Part shown: piece by piece, positions 6,701 through 32,470 of the stretch
Position numbering within the stretch: the first letter of the stretch is position 1
Layout of the letters: each line of letters starts with the position of its first letter
DNA from: a virus
Strand: one strand, 5' to 3'
Length of the DNA: 64,000 nucleotides
Virus record (IMG/VR): IMGVR_UViG_3300018026_000007
Coordinates: 10,897 to 74,896 of that record
Program-made: the position numbers and the translations under genes
The notes under the pieces: generated by a model
What the model was told of the DNA's origin: nothing
What the model saw: only the letters and a program-made list of their open reading frames with translations
Database searches by the model: none

Positions 6701-8528
6701 ACTTTCGGCATGCTGTTGCGCAATCGCGCGCACTGGGAATTCGAACTGTTCCTGATGCTGCTGTTCGATGGACTGATCGCGGGGATACTCATCCCGCTCG
6801 GCCACAAGCACTGGAAGCATCATCTTGCCCGCGACGAGCGCGAACGCTGGGCGGGTATAGGGTTATCACATGTTCAAGACCAGATTGCAGCCGAACAAAA
6901 TGGCGTCGATCCATTGCCGCCGCTTTGGTCGATGGCGTATCCCAGCCACGTCGCAATCCCAGAGTGTGGCGAGGCGCAAACTCGCGTAGGTTGGTGGTGT
7001 ACTCGGGAGATTGGACACGAAGGACCCTGCGCGGCTATCTCGTTTTTGGATTGGGCGGCGCGGAACGGAAGAAACCCCGCCCCCGAGATTTGTACTGGCT
7101 GCCATGGCACATTCGCATCGGTGTCGGAGTACATCGAGCGTTGTACTGGTTGCGGCCAGGTTCGACAAATGTCGCTGGACGGGACATGGTTCTACTGGGG
7201 TGGTGAAAACCCCGCAAAAAACCATGACGAAACCCTGACCCCGTCCTGAAATCGCATTACAGGTTTTTGACTTTTTATTCTAAAGGTAGGAGCACTCACA
7301 TGAGCATGTGGCAGAAGTTCATCCGCTGGTGGAACTGCGAAGACGAGATAGACCTATTGCTGTCGCAGTACGTCCAAGCCCAGCGAAATTTCAACCAGAG
7401 CCAGTTTTTGCTTGAGTCCGCGCCGATGATTGATGCGCCGCTGAGTCCAGTGGATGCGTGTTCGCGATTTGCAGCCATCCGATCCAAGTACGGGTTTATT
7501 CATCCCGCGACAATGAGCAAATACATGGGCTGGATATCGAGAGACGATCATGCCATTTTTCCTGGATCGCCAACCAAGTGGCTCTTGACACCGCTGATGC
7601 CAGAGAATCGGATTCTGATGACACCCATGCCGATGCCGTTTCTGAACGCGGCGAAGAAGTAGCCATGATCGGAACCGACATACTGCAGTGGCGGGGCCCC
7701 ATTACCGTGAGTCGGCGCGCCGATTCTGATGCGATCCCGACGTTACATGAAGTCGATATGCCGTCGAATTGGTTCTACTGGGAACGTCTGATTTTAATTG
7801 AGGCGTTAGAGCGGTGGTTGGAGTCGCTGGAGGCTATCCTATGAGCATCCCACGAATCTTTGTTACTGGCACTCGATTTCGGATCACAGAGCACCCAGGA
7901 TATCTCAAAGCGCATCTCAATGGCTGGATGGGCTGGACTTCAGTCTGGGCAACGACAGGCGAAGCCCTGGTGCGACGCATCAAGCAGATCAGGAGTGGCG
8001 GCCAATGAAAATCAAGAAATACGGCATCGTCATTTTGACGGAAGGTCCCGTGCGCATCGAAGGCTGGCAGGTGGAGTCCGAGCCGAGCGACCCGCCCGAT
8101 GCAAAACCTGAGCAACTACTGACTGCGCTTGCCATCGATTGGGCGAAAGCGCGATTGACGGCGGCAACCAACCAAGCGATTCAAGACGCGGTGAAAGAAC
8201 GCCATCGCCAAATACTGGCGGGCTCGATGCCGAAGCTAGTGCAATGAAGTACATCATTCGGCTGAATCCGCGCGCGTTCAATCCGCTCACGCGGAAGGTC
8301 ATCGCCGAGCGATTGTGGGAAGTCGAGCAGTGCGCGACGCGAGATAGCGAGAAAGTGATTTGGCACTGCGCGGACATTCGAATTAACTTGACACCGATCC
8401 GCGAGTTGTATACACTACCGAAACCAGGTGAAAAAGTTTGGGAGTGGGAAGGCTTCGGGATTTGCGTTCGCGGGCAAGACAATGCCGTGGAGATCAAGAC
8501 AGGACCCCACGATGCGTCAGGAAACTAG
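3737..8528 (+). CDS. Operon of about 19 small hypothetical phage ORFs (3737-3928, 3928-4215, 4332-4622, 4619-4801, 4798-4932, 4929-5081, 5078-5236, 5233-5430, 5440-5850, 5859-6032, 6029-6229, 6226-6483, 6480-6692, 6689-7249, 7300-7662, 7666-7844, 7841-8008, 8005-8247, 8244-8528)
   Basis: Near-continuous tiling with ATGA/GTGA overlaps and GGAG SD motifs. Confidence 0.65.
4170..4309 (+). ncRNA. Two tandem degenerate tRNA-like elements
   Basis: T-arms CTGGG-TTCGAAT-CCCAG (4224-4240) and GGCGG-TTTGAGT-CCGCC (4286-4302), each with a partial acceptor stem; no canonical anticodon arm. Confidence 0.4.
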
Positions 8529-9301: not shown

Positions 9302-9882
9302 ATGGTGTTACTCGACAAAAACCAGACGCTCCAGCCGCCCGAAGGGTATACACTGCGAGCCGTAGCGGCGGACGGCGCGTATTTAAGAGCGACGTATGAC
9401 AAAACGCTGCGACCTCACGTTGTCTCCAAAGTGGTCGTCTACCTAAACGATCAGGGTCGAGAAGTGGCGCGCTCGATTGACGAAACGGACTATTCGGCGT
9501 TCGCGCCCAAACCCGAGCCGCCACCTGCGCCGCGTCGGTTCAGATTTCGCAACGGATTTCTAATCGCCCTCCAGGGCTTACAGGAGATGTTGAAATGTCT
9601 AAGCAAGTCGTGAGTCAACGCATGAAGCAAACCTGCGACGGCTGCGGGTCATCGAAAGAATGGGAGTTGGTAGGTGCCGATGCCGACCCGAATATTCTGG
9701 CCGAAATGCAATGCTGGTTTGTCGTCGCTCGTAAGATCGTGAACGATAGAGGCGAGATGGTGGCTTTGAGTGCCGATGCGTGTTCCGTGGCTTGCGTTTC
9801 AACGATTGCGGAAAAGCTCATGAAGCTGCCAGAGTCCGAACCTGCGGACAAGATCGACCTGGCGTCTTTGCGCATCAACTAA
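9302..9882 (+). CDS. Two hypothetical proteins (9302-9613; 9595-9882 with CDGC..CSVAC zinc-binding pattern)
   Basis: ORF tiling and Cys pattern. Confidence 0.55.
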
Positions 9883-9905
9883 CTTTTCGGTCGGAGCGAA
9901 CGGAA

Positions 9906-11504
9906 ATGAGCAAACTGATTCGACATGGCGCGGACGCTCGTGAAGCTCTCTTGCGCGGCGTTGATTTTCTCGCGGATGCGGTGAAGATCACCGAAGGTCC
10001 CCGAGGGCGAAATTGCATTCTGGGGCAGCGGGCCCTGGGTCAATCCCCGAAGGTCACGCGCGATGGTGTGACCGTCTCCAATTACGCCGACCCATCTGAC
10101 CCGACCGAACAACTCGGTGCCGACCTTATCCGCGAAGCCGCACAGAAGACCGATAACGCGGTAGGCGACGGCACCACGGCATCTATCGTCCTGGCTCAGT
10201 CCATGATTCACGCGGGATTCGACCTGATCGCAAAAGGAGCGAACCCGATGGCGATGGAGCGCGGCATCCACAAAGCCACCGATGCAGTAATCAAACGACT
10301 CTGCGACATGTCCGTTCCCGTCGCAGGGGTAAAGGTCTTCCAGGTCGCCACGGTCTCGGCTCATGGGGACACGGAAATCGGTCGTCTTGTTGCAGACGCG
10401 GTCTACAAGGCAGGCAAAGAGGGGGTAGTCACCGCCGAGCCGTCATCGACATCGGAAACCTACGTGGAAACCGTCGTCGGGCTCGAACTTGAAAAATCCA
10501 ATCTCATCTCGACGGCATTCATCACGCACCCCGAAGACATGAAGGCGGAACTGCACGATTGTCGCATTCTCCTGTGGGAAGGGGTGATTGCCACGGCGAA
10601 ATCCGTTGTGCCGCTGTTAAAGCAGGTGAACGACGCGGGCGGTGCGAGTCCTCTTTTGATTATTGCAGGCGGATACGAAGCGGAAGCTCTCGCCTGTATC
10701 ATCAAGAACAAGACCGCCCTCGCGCTGCCACTTATCGCTGTCCGCATGGAAGCATACGGCGAACGGCGAAAGGAATTGATGCGCGATATCGCGGCGTTGA
10801 CGGGCGGTAAGGCATATACCGAGGACCTGGGTCTGAAGATCGAGAGCATCAAGCTCGCCGAACTCGGCCAGGCACGCAAGGTCATCACGAATATGTCCAA
10901 GACTCAAATCATCGAAGGCCGAGGCAACCAGACTGAATTGATGGGGCGTTTGAACCTCATCACCACGGCTCTGGAAACTGCCGCGCCGATGGAAAAAACG
11001 ATTCTGCGCAAGCGATACGCCGCGCTGGTTGGTGGCATCACGGTCATCAAAGTTGGCGGGGTCACCGTGACCGAGATGGAAGAAAAGAAAGACCGTGTCG
11101 TGGATGCGATGTCTGCAGCAAAGGCAGCAGTTGAGTCGGGCATTGTTTCTGGCGGCGGAATTGCACTACTGCATGCGTCGGGGGTTATCGCGGCGTTGAA
11201 ACTTCCCGCCGAAGAGCGCGCAGGGCTTGAAGTTGTTTACACCGCCTGCCGCGCCGTTGCACGCCAGATTGCCGAGAACGCGGGAATCGATGCCGATGGT
11301 TTGATGAATCAACTGATGGCGACTCCCGATCTTGGCTATAATGCGCTGACAGGTGAATTCGAAAATCTCATCGACTCAGGCATCATCGACCCCTTGGCTG
11401 TTGTCATCGAGTCCCTGAAAAACGCAGCCGCAGTTTCCTGCAGTATCCTGACCATGGGCGCAACCGTGGCAGAGAAAGTGACGGAGAGAATCGCCAATGT
11501 CTAA
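9906..11504 (+). CDS. groEL: Phage-encoded chaperonin GroEL (532 aa)
   Basis: GPRGRN, VTRDGVTV, GDGTT, EKKDRVVDA, GIIDP motifs; start at MSKLIRHG. Confidence 0.95.
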   Translation: MSKLIRHGADAREALLRGVDFLADAVKITEGPRGRNCILGQRALGQSPKVTRDGVTVSNYADPSDPTEQLGADLIREAAQKTDNAVGDGTTASIVLAQSMIHAGFDLIAKGANPMAMERGIHKATDAVIKRLCDMSVPVAGVKVFQVATVSAHGDTEIGRLVADAVYKAGKEGVVTAEPSSTSETYVETVVGLELEKSNLISTAFITHPEDMKAELHDCRILLWEGVIATAKSVVPLLKQVNDAGGASPLLIIAGGYEAEALACIIKNKTALALPLIAVRMEAYGERRKELMRDIAALTGGKAYTEDLGLKIESIKLAELGQARKVITNMSKTQIIEGRGNQTELMGRLNLITTALETAAPMEKTILRKRYAALVGGITVIKVGGVTVTEMEEKKDRVVDAMSAAKAAVESGIVSGGGIALLHASGVIAALKLPAEERAGLEVVYTACRAVARQIAENAGIDADGLMNQLMATPDLGYNALTGEFENLIDSGIIDPLAVVIESLKNAAAVSCSILTMGATVAEKVTERIANV

Positions 11505-25069: not shown

Positions 25070-25103
25070 AAATAAGACTTTTCGCTCTTAGATGAGACTA
25101 TTT

Positions 25104-27338
25104 ATGGCTGATACACCGACAACCGAGATTACAGCTACCAGTCATTTCGAAGATAAAGGTCAAATCCGCGTCCAAGACCTGCCTGGAGCCGTGCCATACG
25201 GCGAGACCGCGCTTCCCATTGGTGCTACAGAGGTTGCCTTCCCCGACCAGGGTCGCTCAGACCTGTCGCTGATGAAGGAAGCGAACCTGAATCGCGAAGA
25301 ATCCGAGAATTTTATCGCGACGCGGGGTCTGATCGGGCGTTGGAACATGGCGGAAATCATGTTGCGCGCCTGGGTCGAGCCAATCAAGTGGAAAGGCAGT
25401 GAACAATTCCGCTCTCACTTGGGCGTGCCCTTGGTTGCAGAGCAATTCTACAGCATTCACAGTGTGGTGAACCAAACGCTGTTCGGCGGCTATCAAGTTT
25501 TCAAAATCGACGCCACTTCTGGCACGCCGCTCGAATGCGCGCTGGCTCAACAGGCCATTCTGAACGCGCAATTGAAAACATGCGGGTACAAGGGCGTTTC
25601 CGCGAAGACCGAGTTTCGCGAAATTACCTACGACGGATTGTTTTATGGGTTCGGGGTTGCGCACTACGGCTGGAAGACAGTCAAAAAGAACATCATCAAG
25701 AAAGTTCCCCGCGTTCATACTCAGACGACCAGTGTCAATGGAAACCTGATTCAAATTCCTACTGAGTCAAAGGACGAAGATGATTTTGTCGAAAAGATTG
25801 TCGGCATTTTGGAAATCAATCAACCCATGCTTGAGCATGTGCCGATTCGCAGATTTCGATATGCGCCCGATCTTCGCCGAGGTGATCCGCGATGCTCAGA
25901 GTGGTGCGGTCGGCTCATTTATGTGACAGGATATGACCTGGACGCCCTTCGTAACACCGAAGGCTGGAATATCCCTACCCGCGCTCAACTCGTCGCACTG
26001 ACAACTCCGCAGATGCAGAGCCAGGCGGCAACCAATCCACTGGAGACGCTTGGTTCCAATACTGGCAATCCCGTCTTTCAGCAGACCACGACGCCACAAA
26101 AAGCGTATCCAGAGAATTACACGGAGCGGACAGCGCATGACCCCCTGATGCGCAAATTCGAAGTCTTCGACTATTGGACTGCAGACCGTCATGCGGTTAT
26201 TCTTGGCAAAGAGTACGTGCTGCTGAACGAGACGCACAAATTTGGGCGTCCGCCGTTTCTTGGATTCTGTTTCCGCAATGCGCCCGACTCGGCGCACGGC
26301 TACGGCATCGCATTTTGGCTGACCGATTTCCAGCGCGTCTGCCAGGGCGTCATCAATGCTTTCTTGGATGACATGAACTTGAACTTGATGGGTACCTACA
26401 CGGCTCCTGCGGGCACTACGAACAGTGCGCAGGCGCAGTGGATTTTCCCAGGTAAGGTTTTCAAGACCGATGCCGCAGGTAAGGTTGAGCCGATGACGCG
26501 CAACGCGGTCAATGCTCAAGAGCCGCTCTCGGTAATCGCCCAGATGAAACAATGGGCGGCTTCGATCACAGGGGCGGGGCCGAGTACTCTCGGGGCGGCT
26601 CCTGGTCCGTCTGGCGCGATGCGGACTCCCGCAGGTGCAGAGGCGGTCTCTGGCGGCGAGTCGGTCAAGCTCCAAGACTTGGTGGATGTGATTTCGGAAC
26701 AGATATTCATTCCGTTCATCGAATTCTGTATCGAGCAGAATCAAAAGCTCAAGCCATCTCAAGTACGCGCGATGCTTTCGCAGGCCCTGGGTGATGCATT
26801 CAAGGCCACGCCGCTCGATATTCTTAACGGTTCTTACCGAGTCGATATTTCTGCGGCGACGAAACTCGCGGCGCGGGAAGCACTGAACAAATACATGGGC
26901 GTGCTGCAGACATTCCTGCAATCGCCAGGCACGGTAGAAAATCTTGCCGTCCAGGCCATGAAGCTCGACTACAACGCCATGTTCGAAGCTCTCTACGATT
27001 CCTTCGGCGTGCCGTACAAGGAAAAGATTATCGTGCCGATGAACGACGAAGACAAGGCGCGCATGGCCGCACAGACACAACAGGCCGCCGCGCAGGGCAA
27101 ACTGGCACTGGTGCAGGCGCAAGGTGAAGTGAAGAAAGATGTGGACAACAACCAGGCCGAAAATCGGATGTTGATTGAAACAGGCAAGCACACACTGAAG
27201 ACGCATGGAGCAGACCATCAGGCGAGTATCGACGCGGCGCAGGCGAAAGCCGAAGCCGCGACACCGCAAGCCCAGGGTCTCGACCGAGCCGCGAAGGGTG
27301 CGTTTGCGACGATGGACAAATCAGCTTTCGGGCAGTAA
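25104..27338 (+). CDS. Portal protein
   Basis: Position after TerL, about 745 aa, GRPPF..GYGI, PGKVF, helical C-terminal tail. Confidence 0.8.
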   Translation: MADTPTTEITATSHFEDKGQIRVQDLPGAVPYGETALPIGATEVAFPDQGRSDLSLMKEANLNREESENFIATRGLIGRWNMAEIMLRAWVEPIKWKGSEQFRSHLGVPLVAEQFYSIHSVVNQTLFGGYQVFKIDATSGTPLECALAQQAILNAQLKTCGYKGVSAKTEFREITYDGLFYGFGVAHYGWKTVKKNIIKKVPRVHTQTTSVNGNLIQIPTESKDEDDFVEKIVGILEINQPMLEHVPIRRFRYAPDLRRGDPRCSEWCGRLIYVTGYDLDALRNTEGWNIPTRAQLVALTTPQMQSQAATNPLETLGSNTGNPVFQQTTTPQKAYPENYTERTAHDPLMRKFEVFDYWTADRHAVILGKEYVLLNETHKFGRPPFLGFCFRNAPDSAHGYGIAFWLTDFQRVCQGVINAFLDDMNLNLMGTYTAPAGTTNSAQAQWIFPGKVFKTDAAGKVEPMTRNAVNAQEPLSVIAQMKQWAASITGAGPSTLGAAPGPSGAMRTPAGAEAVSGGESVKLQDLVDVISEQIFIPFIEFCIEQNQKLKPSQVRAMLSQALGDAFKATPLDILNGSYRVDISAATKLAAREALNKYMGVLQTFLQSPGTVENLAVQAMKLDYNAMFEALYDSFGVPYKEKIIVPMNDEDKARMAAQTQQAAAQGKLALVQAQGEVKKDVDNNQAENRMLIETGKHTLKTHGADHQASIDAAQAKAEAATPQAQGLDRAAKGAFATMDKSAFGQ

Positions 27339-27882: not shown

Positions 27883-28959
27883 ATGAGCACTAATCCAGTT
27901 GTCCTGAATCCCGTAGTCATGAATGACGAGTTGGCGAAGGCTGTCCACGGCGCGCTTGACCCCGAAGATATCAAAGCCGCGATTCTGGCAGAAGCGGCCA
28001 AACAGACCACTGCGGCCACGCAGACGGCGGCTGATACTGCGGCACAAAAAGCGGCGGCGGACAAAGCGGCTGCCGATGCCGTTGTAGCCACGGAGCCTTT
28101 CAAGCGCGTGGAAGTGATCGGCGGACGAGAGTTTACATTCGAAGCCGAGAGCGAGCTTGAACTGGAGCGCGCGGTCAACAACGCTTATAAAGTTGCCTAC
28201 GCGGTTCAGGAGTCTGCGCCAGTGGCTGCAGCGACCCCTGCCGCCCCTGTGGTGCCACAAAAGACTGCAGAAGAAATTGCAGCAGAGCGCGCAGAGTTGG
28301 ACCTGAAGTTTAAGCGCGGAGATATCTCAACAAAAGAATATCTTGAGCAGTCTGGAGCCGTGGCGGATTACTTGGCCAGCCAGGGGATTTCAATCGATAG
28401 GCTAAAGTCCACAGTTGACCAAAACGAAAATACGCAGTATAAACAGTCATGGGAACAAGCCACTGACTCATTTTTGAACAGCACTGCGGGCGCAGATTGG
28501 CCAGGCGGCACAAAGAATCTCAAACTGATCGGCAGAATTATTGCGGCTGATCCGAAATTGGCTGAGGCGGAAGACAAAGTCGCCGCGTTGGCGCAAGCCT
28601 ATAATCAAATGAAAGCGGATGGTACGGTTTTTCCGCCCGAAGACCCCACACTTGTGGATGCAACTCAGACGCCCGCTGCACCCCCCACTCCAGTAGTTGT
28701 GCCTGCAACCCCCGCTCCCGTAGTCGCGGCTCCTGCGGCTCCTGCGCCGCGCGTAGCGGCAACATCGTCTTCTCTCTTCGGAGCAAGTTCAGGCGTAAGC
28801 GCAAATACCGCCGTGCCAGCAGCAACAACCACCAAAGTGGATGTCCCTTCAAATGCAACACCAGAAGAAATTCTCGATGCGTGGAAAAAGGCACAGGTCG
28901 CCGCAGGAAAAAATCCCGACGACGCTTTCAAAGAGACCTTTTCTGCCCGTCGTGCGTAG
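27883..28959 (+). CDS. Probable capsid scaffolding protein
   Basis: Acidic, Ala/Pro-rich, helical, immediately before the capsid gene. Confidence 0.65.
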   Translation: MSTNPVVLNPVVMNDELAKAVHGALDPEDIKAAILAEAAKQTTAATQTAADTAAQKAAADKAAADAVVATEPFKRVEVIGGREFTFEAESELELERAVNNAYKVAYAVQESAPVAAATPAAPVVPQKTAEEIAAERAELDLKFKRGDISTKEYLEQSGAVADYLASQGISIDRLKSTVDQNENTQYKQSWEQATDSFLNSTAGADWPGGTKNLKLIGRIIAADPKLAEAEDKVAALAQAYNQMKADGTVFPPEDPTLVDATQTPAAPPTPVVVPATPAPVVAAPAAPAPRVAATSSSLFGASSGVSANTAVPAATTTKVDVPSNATPEEILDAWKKAQVAAGKNPDDAFKETFSARRA

Positions 28960-29115: not shown

Positions 29116-30111
29116 ATGATTTTACCGCCTGGCGTGCAGAGTACGACTCTTGCCGCTTTCCCACAGATCGCATACGACCGAACCGCCATTCTTGAGTGGC
29201 AGTTCAACACTCCGTTCCTGGAAGAGCTTTGCGACTTCCGACCTCTGCCGCGTCGGTCTGGTCGGACGCTCCAGTTCTACGGGCAAACTCCGTATGCTGC
29301 CGCGACCTACGACCTGTCTGAAGGTATCCCAGGGCCGTCACTCCAGTTGAACCAAGTTTTCAGCGATGCATTCGCCGATGAATACGGCGACTGGATCGGC
29401 ATTTCGAACGTCGCACAGCAAATGTTCCTTGCGGACATCACGCTGGACGCGAGTCGCAACCTGTCGTATCGGGGTGCTCTGACGAGCAACCTGATCGCGA
29501 TTAACGGCTTCGAAGCCGCTGCGACCGCTCAGGCTTCCGCCCGCATCGACTTGCTCGACAACGAATTCATGCTTTCCAACACGATTCGGAAGTGCGAGTC
29601 CCAGTTGATGGGCAACGCGGTTCCTGGTCGCGATGGTGGGCTCTATACGTCGGCTCAGCACCCGTACGTTGTGTACGACTTCATGTCGGACAACAGCGCG
29701 GGCTCTGCCGTCGATACGCTGAAGCGATCCGAATCGGGTGCGAATGTCCTGAAGTCGGACATGACGCGCGGCTACACCGTCCTGGAATGGGCGGGCGTCC
29801 GCATCATCCGTACCCAGACCGTGCCGACCTACACCAACTACCCGTCCACGGGCAAGACTGGTTATGCGTCGTACGTTGTGGGCCGCGAAGCCATGATGGC
29901 TTCCGAGTTGCTGGGCCAGCGCGTTCCGCGCAACCCCAGCTTCAAGGTGAACGTCAAGACCTTCGGCGATAACGACATCGACCTCAGCAACCCCATGTTG
30001 CAGACACGAGCAATCGTGAGCTACGACTGGTTCCTGGGAGTCGTTGCCCGTCCGAATACGAACAACACTCCTGGCTTCCGCCGAGTGCGCTGCGAAGTCA
30101 GCGCGGTGTAG
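29116..30111 (+). CDS. Major capsid protein (HK97 fold, N4-gp56-like)
   Basis: PLPRRSGRTLQF, LSEGIP, EYGDWI, HPYVVYD, GVRII; strong codon bias. Confidence 0.85.
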   Translation: MILPPGVQSTTLAAFPQIAYDRTAILEWQFNTPFLEELCDFRPLPRRSGRTLQFYGQTPYAAATYDLSEGIPGPSLQLNQVFSDAFADEYGDWIGISNVAQQMFLADITLDASRNLSYRGALTSNLIAINGFEAAATAQASARIDLLDNEFMLSNTIRKCESQLMGNAVPGRDGGLYTSAQHPYVVYDFMSDNSAGSAVDTLKRSESGANVLKSDMTRGYTVLEWAGVRIIRTQTVPTYTNYPSTGKTGYASYVVGREAMMASELLGQRVPRNPSFKVNVKTFGDNDIDLSNPMLQTRAIVSYDWFLGVVARPNTNNTPGFRRVRCEVSAV

Positions 30112-30209
30112 TCGGGACCTGAAACCAAGATCGGTTTTTGCACGACAAATTCGTAGGTGGGTTGAAATCCCCACCCCGAGATTTTCTTTGAATTGACAGG
30201 AGAACTACC

Positions 30210-30821
30210 GTGTCTAACGCTTCAACCATTCGTCGGCAAGTCGCAGGAACCCAGCAATTGACTCTCGCGTCGTTGCTCGGCTCGACAATTACCACAACGG
30301 AGACCGCGTTCAAGCTGAACGATAACGGTCTGACCTTGACTGGCGGGGGCGTCGTGCCTCTGGCTGCAGGGAACACTGGGCTGTACGCGGGCACTGGCCA
30401 GGTTATTTGGATTCACGCTGCGGGTACGATTACGGGCGGAACCGCCAGTTCTACCTCGCTGATTCTCAAACTGTACGAAGTTCCTGCGTCTTTGCTGCCC
30501 ATCGCCGATACGCTGGCTGGTCAGCAAACCTTCACAAGCTGGAACCTGATTGCCACGTCGGCGCCGGGAGTCCTCAGTTCGGGTGTCACCGCTGGAAACT
30601 TCTCCGTGGACGCTTATGTCCAATTGGACTCGCAGTACAATCTCGACGGTTGGTTCGAATCGCAGGTATTTGCGTCTACGACTGGCGCAAAGACCGCCAT
30701 CACTGCAGTCAAGGGTCTGGTCGGCGAAGCGGATTTGAACTTTGCTCTGACCACCACCTTGGGCGGAACCGAAGCGGGCGTTACCGTCAACCTGAACGAA
30801 TTCGAACTCTCGCTCGTGTAG
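30210..30821 (+). CDS. Putative capsid decoration/minor head protein
   Basis: Follows the capsid gene, AGGAG SD, GTG start, beta-rich. Confidence 0.6.
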   Translation: MSNASTIRRQVAGTQQLTLASLLGSTITTTETAFKLNDNGLTLTGGGVVPLAAGNTGLYAGTGQVIWIHAAGTITGGTASSTSLILKLYEVPASLLPIADTLAGQQTFTSWNLIATSAPGVLSSGVTAGNFSVDAYVQLDSQYNLDGWFESQVFASTTGAKTAITAVKGLVGEADLNFALTTTLGGTEAGVTVNLNEFELSLV

Positions 30822-30853
30822 TCCTGAGCGAGCAACAATTTCTTGACACCTCC

Positions 30854-30892
30854 ACCCCTCAGCACCAGTATGGCACTGAGGGGTTTTCTTTT
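30854..30892 (+). terminator. Rho-independent terminator overlapping a sigma70-type promoter
   Basis: ACCCCTCAG/CTGAGGGGT stem followed by TTTCTTTT; TTGACA(30843)-17-CAGTAT overlaps it. Confidence 0.7.
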
Positions 30893-31093
30893 ATGCTGCC
30901 GCTTGATGATGTCGCGTACGATTCCATCTCAATAGAAGAATGGAAAATGAACACGATGTTTGACAGTTTTCTGGACTTTCGTCCCCTGCCGCGCCGATAC
31001 AAAAGCATCTGGCGCGTGCTGCATGTGGATGGTTTCGAAGCTGGAAAACCCGTCATGTTCAAGACTTTTTCTTCCATAAGTGAACCTGAATGA
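30893..31093 (+). CDS. 66-aa ORF homologous to the capsid N-terminus
   Basis: 17/30 identities to capsid residues 18-47 including DFRPLPRR; GAGGGG SD. Confidence 0.6.
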   Translation: MLPLDDVAYDSISIEEWKMNTMFDSFLDFRPLPRRYKSIWRVLHVDGFEAGKPVMFKTFSSISEPE

Positions 31094-31098
31094 ACAGG

Positions 31099-31175
31099 TG
31101 CGGAGTGGAGCAGTCAGGTAGCTCGTCTGCCTCATAAGCAGAAGGTCGCAGGTTCAAATCCTGCCTCCGCAACCA
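31099..31175 (+). tRNA. tRNA-Met (CAT), initiator-like body
   Basis: Full cloverleaf, loop CTCATAA, encoded CCA. Confidence 0.95.
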
Positions 31176-31177
31176 AA

Positions 31178-31253
31178 GCACGAGTAGCTCAGACGGCAGA
31201 GCGGCTGTTTTGTAAACAGCGGGTCGGTGGTTCGATTCCATCCTCGTGCTCCA
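31178..31253 (+). tRNA. tRNA-Thr (TGT)
   Basis: Full cloverleaf, loop TTTGTAA, encoded CCA. Confidence 0.95.
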
Positions 31254-31271
31254 AATTTGTGATAGGATAGA

Positions 31272-31889
31272 ATGATGTTCAACATGGACCCATCTCGGAC
31301 AAAAATCGGCTACCTAGTTCGCCATGGTGAGTTGAAGAACATGCGGATTTGGGATGGCTGGGGTGACTTTGATTTGTCCGAAGAAGGCAAACGCCAAGCC
31401 GAGAAGGCTGCGCAGTGGCTTTCATTCGAACATTTCGGTCGCGTGGTTTCATCCGATGTGCCGCGCACGATGCACACCGCGCAATATTTGATGGACTCTG
31501 GCTCGGTTGACTGCCAGTACATGGTGTGCGACCCGAACCTGCGACCATGGAACGTGTCGGATTTTACGGGCAAGGAAAAAACGCCCGAGCGGATCGCTGA
31601 ATTCAAGAAGTACATTGATGACCCAACGCTGCCGATCCCTGGCGGCGAGAGTCGCAATCAACTCAAGGATCGCGTGCAAGTCCTGTGGCAGTACTTCATG
31701 GCTCCGTACAAGGGTCTTCCGACCGTGGGATTCATTCACAACTCGGTGCTGAAATCGTTGATGGGAATCGATGACGTGCGAGATGCCGTGTCGCCAGGCG
31801 GGATCGTCGCCGTTTATATGACCGAAAAGGGCGAGATTGAATTTCAAATCGTAATGGGCGAAGTCAATTTTGAAAAGGGAGTTTCGTAA
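31272..31889 (+). CDS. Histidine phosphatase (phosphoglycerate mutase family)
   Basis: LVRHGE, SSD..RTMHTA, PGGES, IHN. Confidence 0.85.
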   Translation: MMFNMDPSRTKIGYLVRHGELKNMRIWDGWGDFDLSEEGKRQAEKAAQWLSFEHFGRVVSSDVPRTMHTAQYLMDSGSVDCQYMVCDPNLRPWNVSDFTGKEKTPERIAEFKKYIDDPTLPIPGGESRNQLKDRVQVLWQYFMAPYKGLPTVGFIHNSVLKSLMGIDDVRDAVSPGGIVAVYMTEKGEIEFQIVMGEVNFEKGVS

Positions 31890-32470
31890 TGGCATCCCCA
31901 ACCCCGCCGCTTACTGACCTCGCCGCGCCGATTCTCGCGGGCGATCCCATTCTGTCCGACGAGAACCGTGCCGACCTGTGGGACACGTTCCACAGTTCCA
32001 AAAGTCCCGAAGAACTTATTCAGCACCTGCAGCCATTGGTAATCCCCGACGATACCAAGAAGCGGCTGTACGACGCCAAAAGGCAATCGATGCCCGTGGT
32101 CGGACCGATAGACAAAGTCACAACCGCCATGCAGCAACTGGCTCAGATAGACCCCAAAATACTGGATGTCGCGGAAGCGCATCCGAATGTCCTGAAGGCA
32201 CTCACCAGCGCGGCTACGACCCCCGAAAAAGGGGCTACAGCGACTTCTGGCGCATCGACACCTGCGGGGAAGGGAAAGACACCAGCCGCTGGCTCTGCGC
32301 CCGCCCCTGTCGCCCTACCGCCAAGACCCGATGGTTTAGAGCACATGCCGCCGATTCCTGAAGGTCATAAGCGCGTCCAAGCCAGCGATGGTGGGATTCA
32401 TGACATCCCCGAAGAGAACTTGCCCAAGGCATTTGAACTGGACCCCCGACTGCATGTAATGAATCCATAG
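31889..32470 (+). CDS. Hypothetical, possibly internal virion protein
   Basis: Directly before the giant polyvalent gene. Confidence 0.55.
   Translation: MASPTPPLTDLAAPILAGDPILSDENRADLWDTFHSSKSPEELIQHLQPLVIPDDTKKRLYDAKRQSMPVVGPIDKVTTAMQQLAQIDPKILDVAEAHPNVLKALTSAATTPEKGATATSGASTPAGKGKTPAAGSAPAPVALPPRPDGLEHMPPIPEGHKRVQASDGGIHDIPEENLPKAFELDPRLHVMNP

Follow-up and report, generated by a model that had tools for sequence, protein, structure and literature searches.

A small phage gene family that resembles the arm of its own capsid: a candidate mimic of a major capsid protein

Introduction

Why would a phage carry, close behind its major capsid gene, a separate small open reading frame whose product resembles the N-terminal arm of that same capsid? 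The question was raised by a 64,000 nt stretch of viral DNA (hereafter the window; positions 10,897 to 74,896 of IMG/VR record IMGVR_UViG_3300018026_000007). The source record is a 74.9 kb phage, about 75% complete, with every gene on the + strand. Here we describe the mini-ORF, its relatives and its surroundings, and weigh the explanations for its likeness to the capsid.

Results

The capsid gene and the copied arm

The head genes of the window and the gene that closes the capsid operon are as follows.

25092-27338, + strand: portal, SU10-type (Pfam)
between the portal and the putative scaffold, + strand: 140-aa gene (gene order)
27883-28959, + strand: putative scaffold, 358 aa, Ala/Pro-rich (gene order)
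29116-30111, + strand: major capsid protein, 331 aa, HK97 fold (PHROG 1357 major head protein, E 8e-14; AF2; Foldseek)
29167-29286, + strand: capsid N-arm and first strand towards the E-loop, aa 18-57, the part copied by the mini-protein family (BLASTP, hhalign)
30210-30821, + strand: last capsid-operon gene, 203 aa (ORF list; kept in relatives)

The AF2 model of the capsid (pTM 0.76) contains the N-arm, E-loop, spine helix, A domain and P domain of the HK97 fold, and its best PDB matches in Foldseek were the capsids of Pan3, GP4 and N4 (E 3e-13). Against the N4-gp56 family (TIGR04387) the capsid scored 39.1 bits, below the curated cut-off of 60; by this score its relationship to the N4-gp56 type is only distant. 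The N-arm motif was kept in 32 capsids, down to 36% identity, and the N-arm and the P-domain strands are the most conserved motifs of the capsid. The 203-aa gene had no family match in Pfam, PHROG or NCBIfam.

Some capsid loci of the relatives are interrupted. In one relative (G005, 111.5 kb) the capsid gene lies in three pieces (L113 578-2931), separated by two ORF-bearing insertions (168 and 229 aa). On visual inspection the ORFs resemble LAGLIDADG-type and HNH-type endonucleases, and they had no Pfam match; the insertions are probably introns or inteins. In two further loci (L045 6001-7212 and L048 2544-3754) the capsid match spans 1212 nt rather than 993, which suggests an insertion of about 220 nt. 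In L026 an ORF of the Endonuclease VII family (7004-7432; PF02945, E 4e-11) lies between the capsid gene and the next gene, a further sign that the region is a hotspot of mobile genes. Elsewhere in the window a Cpn60/GroEL-type chaperonin is encoded (9780-11504; PF00118, E 1e-56); its homologue in L067 is 78% identical, and the gene is conserved in relatives.

The mini-ORF matches the capsid arm in protein, with different codons

The mini-ORF begins downstream of the 203-aa gene and has the following parts.

30893-31093, + strand: mini-ORF, 66 aa (P0002), ATG at 30893 and TGA at 31091-31093; new small-protein family
30911-30997, + strand: capsid N-arm-like segment, mini-protein aa 7-35 (BLASTP to capsid aa 18-47)
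30998-31039, + strand: family core YKSIWRVLHVDGFE, mini-protein aa 36-49, an insert relative to the capsid
31043-31069, + strand: GKPVMFKTF, mini-protein aa 51-59, counterpart of the capsid strand GRTLQFYG (hhalign columns past the insert)

The match of mini-protein aa 7-35 to capsid aa 18-47 given in the first-pass annotation, with 17/30 identities, was reproduced exactly by pairwise BLASTP (E 6e-10). The annotation had also described the synonymous codons as divergent, and the count agrees: the same codon is used at 6 of the 17 shared residues and a different one at 11. The DNA of the two segments is identical at 52 of 87 positions. With this low DNA identity and the mostly different codons at shared residues, a recent gene conversion from the capsid gene was rejected. 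A silent cassette for variation of the capsid arm was rejected as well, because selection acts on the protein sequence of the non-capsid core and because recombination would need a higher DNA identity than is seen. A longer ORF in the same frame (30407-31093) was rejected too, since the 203-aa gene occupies part of it in another frame and the homologues begin just before the AYD motif.

The mini-ORF was identical in contigs from independent peat metagenomes. Moreover, contigs of two other peat metagenome runs with separate study codes bridge at least 30006-32361 with a single difference, indicating that the arrangement of the mini-ORF is not an assembly artefact.

The AF2 monomer of the mini-protein reached pLDDT 73 and pTM 0.30, and its most confident part is a helix in the arm-like segment (aa 11-20). 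Given this moderate confidence, mimicry is argued here from sequence and not from a shared fold. A Foldseek search with the model and a search of the ESM Atlas gave no usable match, and the predicted complex of capsid (A4) and mini-protein (A3) scored 0.00, which is no verdict either way.

A phage-only family of small proteins

An exhaustive HMMER search of 1.84 billion representatives retrieved 46 cluster representatives at the threshold of E<=1e-3, 16 of them at E<=1e-10. All but one of the 46 proteins are 54-183 aa long and none is capsid-sized; one protein of 422 aa with nine short matched stretches was excluded. The family core reads Y[RK]S[NI]WRxLHxDGFE. In the family alignment (A3) W40, R41 and D46 are invariant, S38, L43, H44, G47 and F48 are conserved at >=90%, and Y9 is also near-invariant. 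The mini-ORF product matches the family profile at 88 bits (E 3.7e-26); at 66 aa it has the size of a member, and it carries an arm-like stretch (aYDxxxIxxW ... RPLPR) 5' of the core. Homologues keep their start position with respect to the AYD motif.

When the 14 core codons were compared pairwise among 30 DNA copies, identity at codon positions 1, 2 and 3 was 0.82, 0.88 and 0.49, and the core Ser is encoded by both AGY and TCN, which indicates that the core is under purifying selection at the protein level. The first-pass annotation had named a search for relatives and for purifying selection as the check that would expose a recombination scar; homologues exist and are under selection, and the mini-ORF is not such a scar.

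The window's mini-protein had no match in Pfam, PHROGs, NCBIfam, PADLOC or PDB sequences, and in the same databases the other 45 members gave only scattered chance matches of single members. No relative of the family was found in 185,579 prokaryote genomes, and no match in the cultured-phage database (DNA search, tblastn). Judged by its conservation, the mini-ORF is a true gene, one of a phage-only family of small proteins that has not been described before.

A faint likeness also links the core (SNWRxLHxDGFE, 31010-31039) to SNLIAINGFE, where the capsid spine helix ends (29464-29523, aa 124-133). The comparison of this helix end with SNWRILHIDGFE gave pairwise E values of 0.05-0.09 from non-independent queries and is not significant.

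The likeness to the capsid continues beyond the core

The two profiles, that of the family (A3) and that of 32 capsids (A4), were compared with hhalign and aligned over capsid aa 20-62 with a probability of 95.8% (E 8e-9). In this alignment the core is a 14-residue insert between capsid RPLPRR and SGRTLQFYG. The earlier statement that the mini-protein diverges completely from the capsid after RPLPRR did not hold up at the level of the family, where likeness resumes past the 14-aa insert with G[KR]x[IL]QF[FY] against capsid GRTLQFYG. At the position of GKPVMFKTF in the window other members have KTLQFY or RTIQFF, and in L100 the segment LPRRSGRQLQFF stands 3' of the core with 10/12 identities to capsid aa 44-55. 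Since the alignment continues past the insert, the likeness covers the arm and the strand into the E-loop. The family profile alone also retrieved the capsid N-arm in 8 related genomes.

A third capsid segment recurs in the family. Many relatives start with GYxTY[VI]xGxxA, which matches a conserved capsid segment at about aa 249-259 (match to aa 249-261, hhalign E 2.5e-5; BLASTP 1e-4 for L070), and P0029 has TYVMGRNAM followed by IAYDRTAIKEW. The order of the capsid-like pieces differs from that in the capsid, indicating that the gene is not the product of a simple deletion. In L069, L070 and P0048 the arm motif is almost gone. Taken from these alignments, the mini-protein is composed of a stretch homologous to its own capsid's N-arm, a near-invariant non-capsid core of 14 residues and a short stretch of the E-loop strand.

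Capsid-like flanks agree with the phage's own capsid type in three genomes

Identity between the window-type and the G004-type capsid is only 21%. The arm of the G004 capsid reads ILFDKELIPNLK ... QPLHMGINRTFFQY, and the mini-gene of the same lineage (L066, with intact orthologues in L095 and L097) reads LFDKELI ... core ... IPFHMGNIRYFFQY. The mini-proteins of the window and L026 matched only the window-type arm (37.7 and 31.6 bits), and the G004 mini-protein matched only the G004/G005-type arm (28.5 and 28.1 bits). In three segments of G004, the same codon is used at 0/5, 2/9 and 4/5 of the shared residues. As shared residues mostly have different codons, the cognate likeness does not come from recent gene conversion.

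The mini-proteins of G001, G002 and G005 showed weak matches to capsid aa 249-261 only, and L070 is closer to the window-type motif than to its own capsid; the tracking thus rests on three genomes and two capsid types. Within these three genomes the alignments clearly show capsid-like flanks that agree with the cognate capsid type, around a constant core.

The mini-gene is accessory and changes position

A total of 62 related IMG/VR loci with capsids 75-97% identical were compared. A homologue of the mini-gene lay near the capsid gene in only one of them (L026), and the DNA that separates the 203-aa gene from the phosphatase gene is hypervariable. In L026 the homologue encodes 64 aa, lies 3' of the phosphatase gene and shares an ATGA overlap with both neighbours. 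The order phosphatase, mini-gene, 193-aa gene is found in L026 and L083, and a mini-gene stands beside a histidine phosphatase in three lineages. Other members lie 5' of a 775-aa gene (L091, L099), 3' of a 169-aa gene (L066, L095, L097) or inside arrays of 60-150-aa genes (L067-L069), giving at least five different neighbourhoods.

Members were found in G000-G005, at a different position in G001, G002 and G005, and as a divergent copy in G007; no member was detectable in G006 and G008, both 97%-complete genomes. The variable sites and the absence from these two genomes mark the mini-gene as an accessory gene that moves about within a single lineage of peat and soil phages (about 97-111 kb).

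Two copies depart from the usual form. The G004 copy (L066, about 9872-10111) carries a single in-frame TGA in place of the Arg of its orthologues (SLL*VL against SMLRVL), which marks either a recent pseudogene or a site of read-through. On one metagenome contig (L087 994-1860) two members of 47 and 75 aa lie within 0.9 kb, apparently as a tandem duplicate.

A candidate promoter overlaps the terminator of the capsid operon

The signals around the mini-ORF are as follows.

30840-30871, + strand: host-type (sigma-70-like) promoter candidate, TTC-TTGACA-17-CAGTAT (shared motif class)
30854-30892, + strand: intrinsic terminator of the capsid operon (RNA fold)
30878-30883, + strand: GAGGGG Shine-Dalgarno (SD) (sequence, fold)
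31063-31087, + strand: phage-specific promoter-like motif GACTTT-N11-GTG, overlapping the last mini-ORF codons and preceding tRNA-Met

The intrinsic terminator has a 9-bp stem (30854-62 with 30876-84) with 6 G-C pairs, followed by UUUUCUUUU. Its loop of 13 nt is longer than usual and holds an inner 3-bp stem. The first-pass annotation had placed a promoter over this hairpin, and both of its elements are present, TTGACA at 30843-48 and CAGTAT at 30866-71, spaced by 17 nt. The -35 element of this candidate agrees with the consensus at 6/6 positions and the -10 element at 3/6, with A2 and T6 kept. A generic scan for promoters and terminators listed neither site, the -10 element having only 3/6 consensus bases and the loop being longer than 8 nt. 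The GAGGGG SD reported with the promoter was also confirmed; it lies 9 nt 5' of the ATG and forms part of the 3' arm of the terminator.

The overlapping candidate belongs to a recurrent class. TYCTTGACA-N16-18-NANTAT occurs at 6 sites in the window, on the + strand only, where 0.005 would be expected. These candidates lie at 2263, 30840, 45652, 49334, 56637 and 58572; upstream of them the DNA is often A/T-rich, and their leaders would often be very short, the mRNA from 45652 being almost leaderless. All except that at 30840 precede genes of the replication region.

A second motif, GACTTT-N10-11-GTR, is present in 11 copies, on the + strand only, against 0.16 expected (7269, 12290, 14491, 21079, 27836, 29044, 31063, 59592, 61110, 61842 and 63344). 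Its copies precede the scaffold, the capsid, other genes and tRNAs. The motif resembles promoters of single-subunit phage RNA polymerases (CTATAGTGTAGGGA 5' of the capsid gene); no RNA polymerase gene was found by Pfam among the large ORFs tested. The annotation had set the capsid gene, in contrast to the mini-ORF, behind the GACTTT motif. This stands, as the capsid gene and its neighbours lie behind this different, phage-specific motif, with the correction that a further copy lies inside the 3' end of the mini-ORF (31063). With the host-type site on its 5' side and this copy in its last codons, the mini-ORF is the only gene confined between a host-type and a phage-type start, both of them candidate promoters.

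A transcript from the candidate promoter is predicted to start at about 30877-30879; it would lack the 5' arm of the hairpin and leave the SD free, whereas in read-through RNA from the capsid operon the SD would be buried in the hairpin. The locus thus documents a terminator that contains a candidate promoter and could switch the accessibility of an SD. A promoter of its own is missing from most members of the family, and the L067 copy lies behind a GACTTT motif, indicating that early expression is not a general family trait.

Genes downstream of the mini-ORF

Two tRNA genes and a phosphatase gene follow.

31099-31175, + strand: tRNA-Met (CAT) (ARAGORN; Rfam tRNA 70.8 bits)
31178-31253, + strand: tRNA-Thr (TGT) (ARAGORN; Rfam tRNA 65.4 bits)
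31272-31889, + strand: histidine-phosphatase superfamily protein (PF00300, E 1.4e-24)

An Rfam match to YrlA across the two tRNAs scored 27 bits against a threshold of 69 and was discarded as noise. The phosphatase gene, directly 3' of tRNA-Met and tRNA-Thr (31099-31889), is kept in nearly all relatives. It is followed by a 193-aa gene and then by a giant protein of 1857 aa, a putative virion protein module. A tRNA-repair role for a histidine phosphatase adjacent to tRNA genes is conceivable, given that toxSAS enzymes pyrophosphorylate tRNA ends (PMC9712102).

Discussion

A constant core combined with flanks that track the cognate capsid, across capsids only 21% identical, makes it possible to test directly whether a virus imitates one of its own structural proteins, in a new protein family of about 46 clusters at 50% identity from abundant peat and soil phages. 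The first-pass annotation had suggested a decoy or inhibitor, an assembly regulator or an exclusion factor; its reading is supported in part, in that the gene is genuine and selected, its promoter candidate belongs to a recurrent strand-specific class and the capsid gene lies behind another motif. The explanation we favour, with slightly less than even confidence, is that the mini-protein may act as a competitive mimic of the cognate capsid arm that carries a constant core. A mimic of the capsid N-arm/P-domain surface would tie up some protein to which freshly synthesised capsid subunits normally bind, and the conserved core would supply a common function, either blocking or structural.

As the protein to be occupied, a host immunity protein that senses capsid is slightly and tentatively favoured, with the mini-protein as a decoy or antagonist. 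This preference comes from the accessory and mobile nature of the gene, from the host-type promoter candidate that stands before it in the window, where the capsid gene has the phage-type motif, and from the adjacency to phosphatase and tRNA genes in three lineages. In a known case the capsid protein directly activates CapRel-SJ46, which pyrophosphorylates tRNAs (PMC9712102). Binding of such a fragment could, however, also activate the sensor instead of blocking it. With a host sensor as its target, the mini-protein would be a first example of a phage decoy against capsid-sensing immunity and would reveal the capsid surface under surveillance. To our knowledge, no phage-encoded capsid decoy has been described.

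Nearly as likely as a host sensor, and a possible alternative, is a target within the phage's own assembly line. The mini-protein would then dock where the capsid N-arm binds, on the scaffold (27883-28959) or on adjacent capsid subunits, and would delay, nucleate or cap the polymerisation of its own capsid. The copied segments, which are N-arm and P-domain strands and thus the most conserved capsid motifs, would suit this role, as would their agreement with the cognate capsid. The mini-gene lies less than 3 kb from the capsid gene in the window and L026, and a precedent exists in phage 80alpha, where the N-arm helix folds along the P-domain and docks the scaffold C-terminus, and where CpmB of SaPI1, a small protein, competes (PMC5644958). 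Assembly factors, on the other hand, are usually core genes at a fixed position, but the mini-gene is missing from two near-complete relatives and lies in replication or small-gene regions of others. In the window, moreover, a terminator and a different type of promoter separate it from the capsid operon. Should the scaffold or the shell prove to be the target, the mini-protein would represent an assembly competitor encoded by the phage itself, for which only satellites have provided examples to date.

An unlikely alternative is that the likeness is merely historical. An old partial duplicate of the capsid gene would have been recruited for an unrelated job of the WRxLHxDGFE core, for example the binding of an enzyme of the host or the phage, and the flanks would now be linkers. 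The core is indeed far better conserved than the flanks, the arm motif is almost lost in the three members named above, and neighbourhoods vary. However, an unconstrained old duplicate predicts equal similarity to both capsid types, whereas the matches are reciprocal and cognate-specific; residue identity has been kept while synonymous sites were scrambled, and three separate capsid motifs recur in the family.

The whole island might also serve against capsid-triggered immunity that attacks tRNAs (toxSAS/CapRel type), with the mini-gene as the part that blinds the sensor, a scheme that we regard as quite unlikely. An early-made copy of the capsid arm would occupy the host sensor without activating it, the histidine-family phosphatase would remove damaging phosphates from tRNA 3' ends, and the tRNA-Met and tRNA-Thr genes would provide spares. 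The flanks of the decoy would then co-evolve with the phage's own capsid.

It is very unlikely that the mini-protein is a packaged passenger, whose arm segment would be an address into the procapsid via the scaffold, in analogy to the capsid-targeting sequences of T4 internal proteins, and whose core would come into play in the next host once ejected. A design of address plus payload would suit the combination of cognate-specific flanks and constant core, and in L026 and L083 the mini-gene lies upstream of the module of the 1857-aa putative virion protein; yet 14 aa make a very small payload, and many copies are far from structural genes. The chance that the ORF is a non-functional recombination scar or a chance ORF is close to negligible: 61 of the 62 related capsid loci lack it here, and it lies in a hypervariable spacer, but 46 clusters with invariant residues, a codon-position signature of selection on the protein, the translational coupling of the L026 gene and the conserved start position relative to the AYD motif speak against it, and synonymous variation argues against an artefact of a conserved DNA element.

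Comparison with known systems

The comparison with N4-gp56 (TIGR04387) concerns the parent capsid and not the mini-protein. The HK97 fold is common to both, the nearest solved structures are podophage capsids including that of N4, and JGI gives that name to relatives of the capsid. Full-length capsid paralogues are known, such as T4 gp24 beside gp23 and the Ccm proteins of PICIs, which have the whole HK97 fold and form part of the shell. Like the mini-genes, these are extra genes derived from a major capsid gene; unlike them, the mini-proteins retain about 40 arm and strand residues together with a new core. We know of no earlier description of partial capsid copies as separate, selected small genes.

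The internal proteins of T4 carry a capsid-targeting sequence, a short N-terminal address that brings small proteins into the procapsid. This signal of about 10 residues binds the scaffolding core and is removed by the prohead protease; it differs from the mini-protein in that it is not a copy of the capsid.

CpmB of SaPI1 is, like the mini-protein, a small copy of an interaction motif of a morphogenetic protein, and it competes at the interface of capsid N-arm and scaffold (PMC5644958). It differs in that it copies the scaffold C-terminus and not the capsid arm and belongs to a satellite, a parasite of the phage; its structure and its influence on capsid size have been established, and it has no sequence relation to the mini-protein family. 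For CapRel-SJ46, the escape mutations L114P and I115F of the capsid concerned are not in the N-arm (PMC9712102). As a host sensor that is bound by newly made HK97-fold capsid protein and whose output damages tRNAs, it nevertheless represents the kind of target that a decoy encoded beside tRNA and phosphatase genes might have (PMC9712102).
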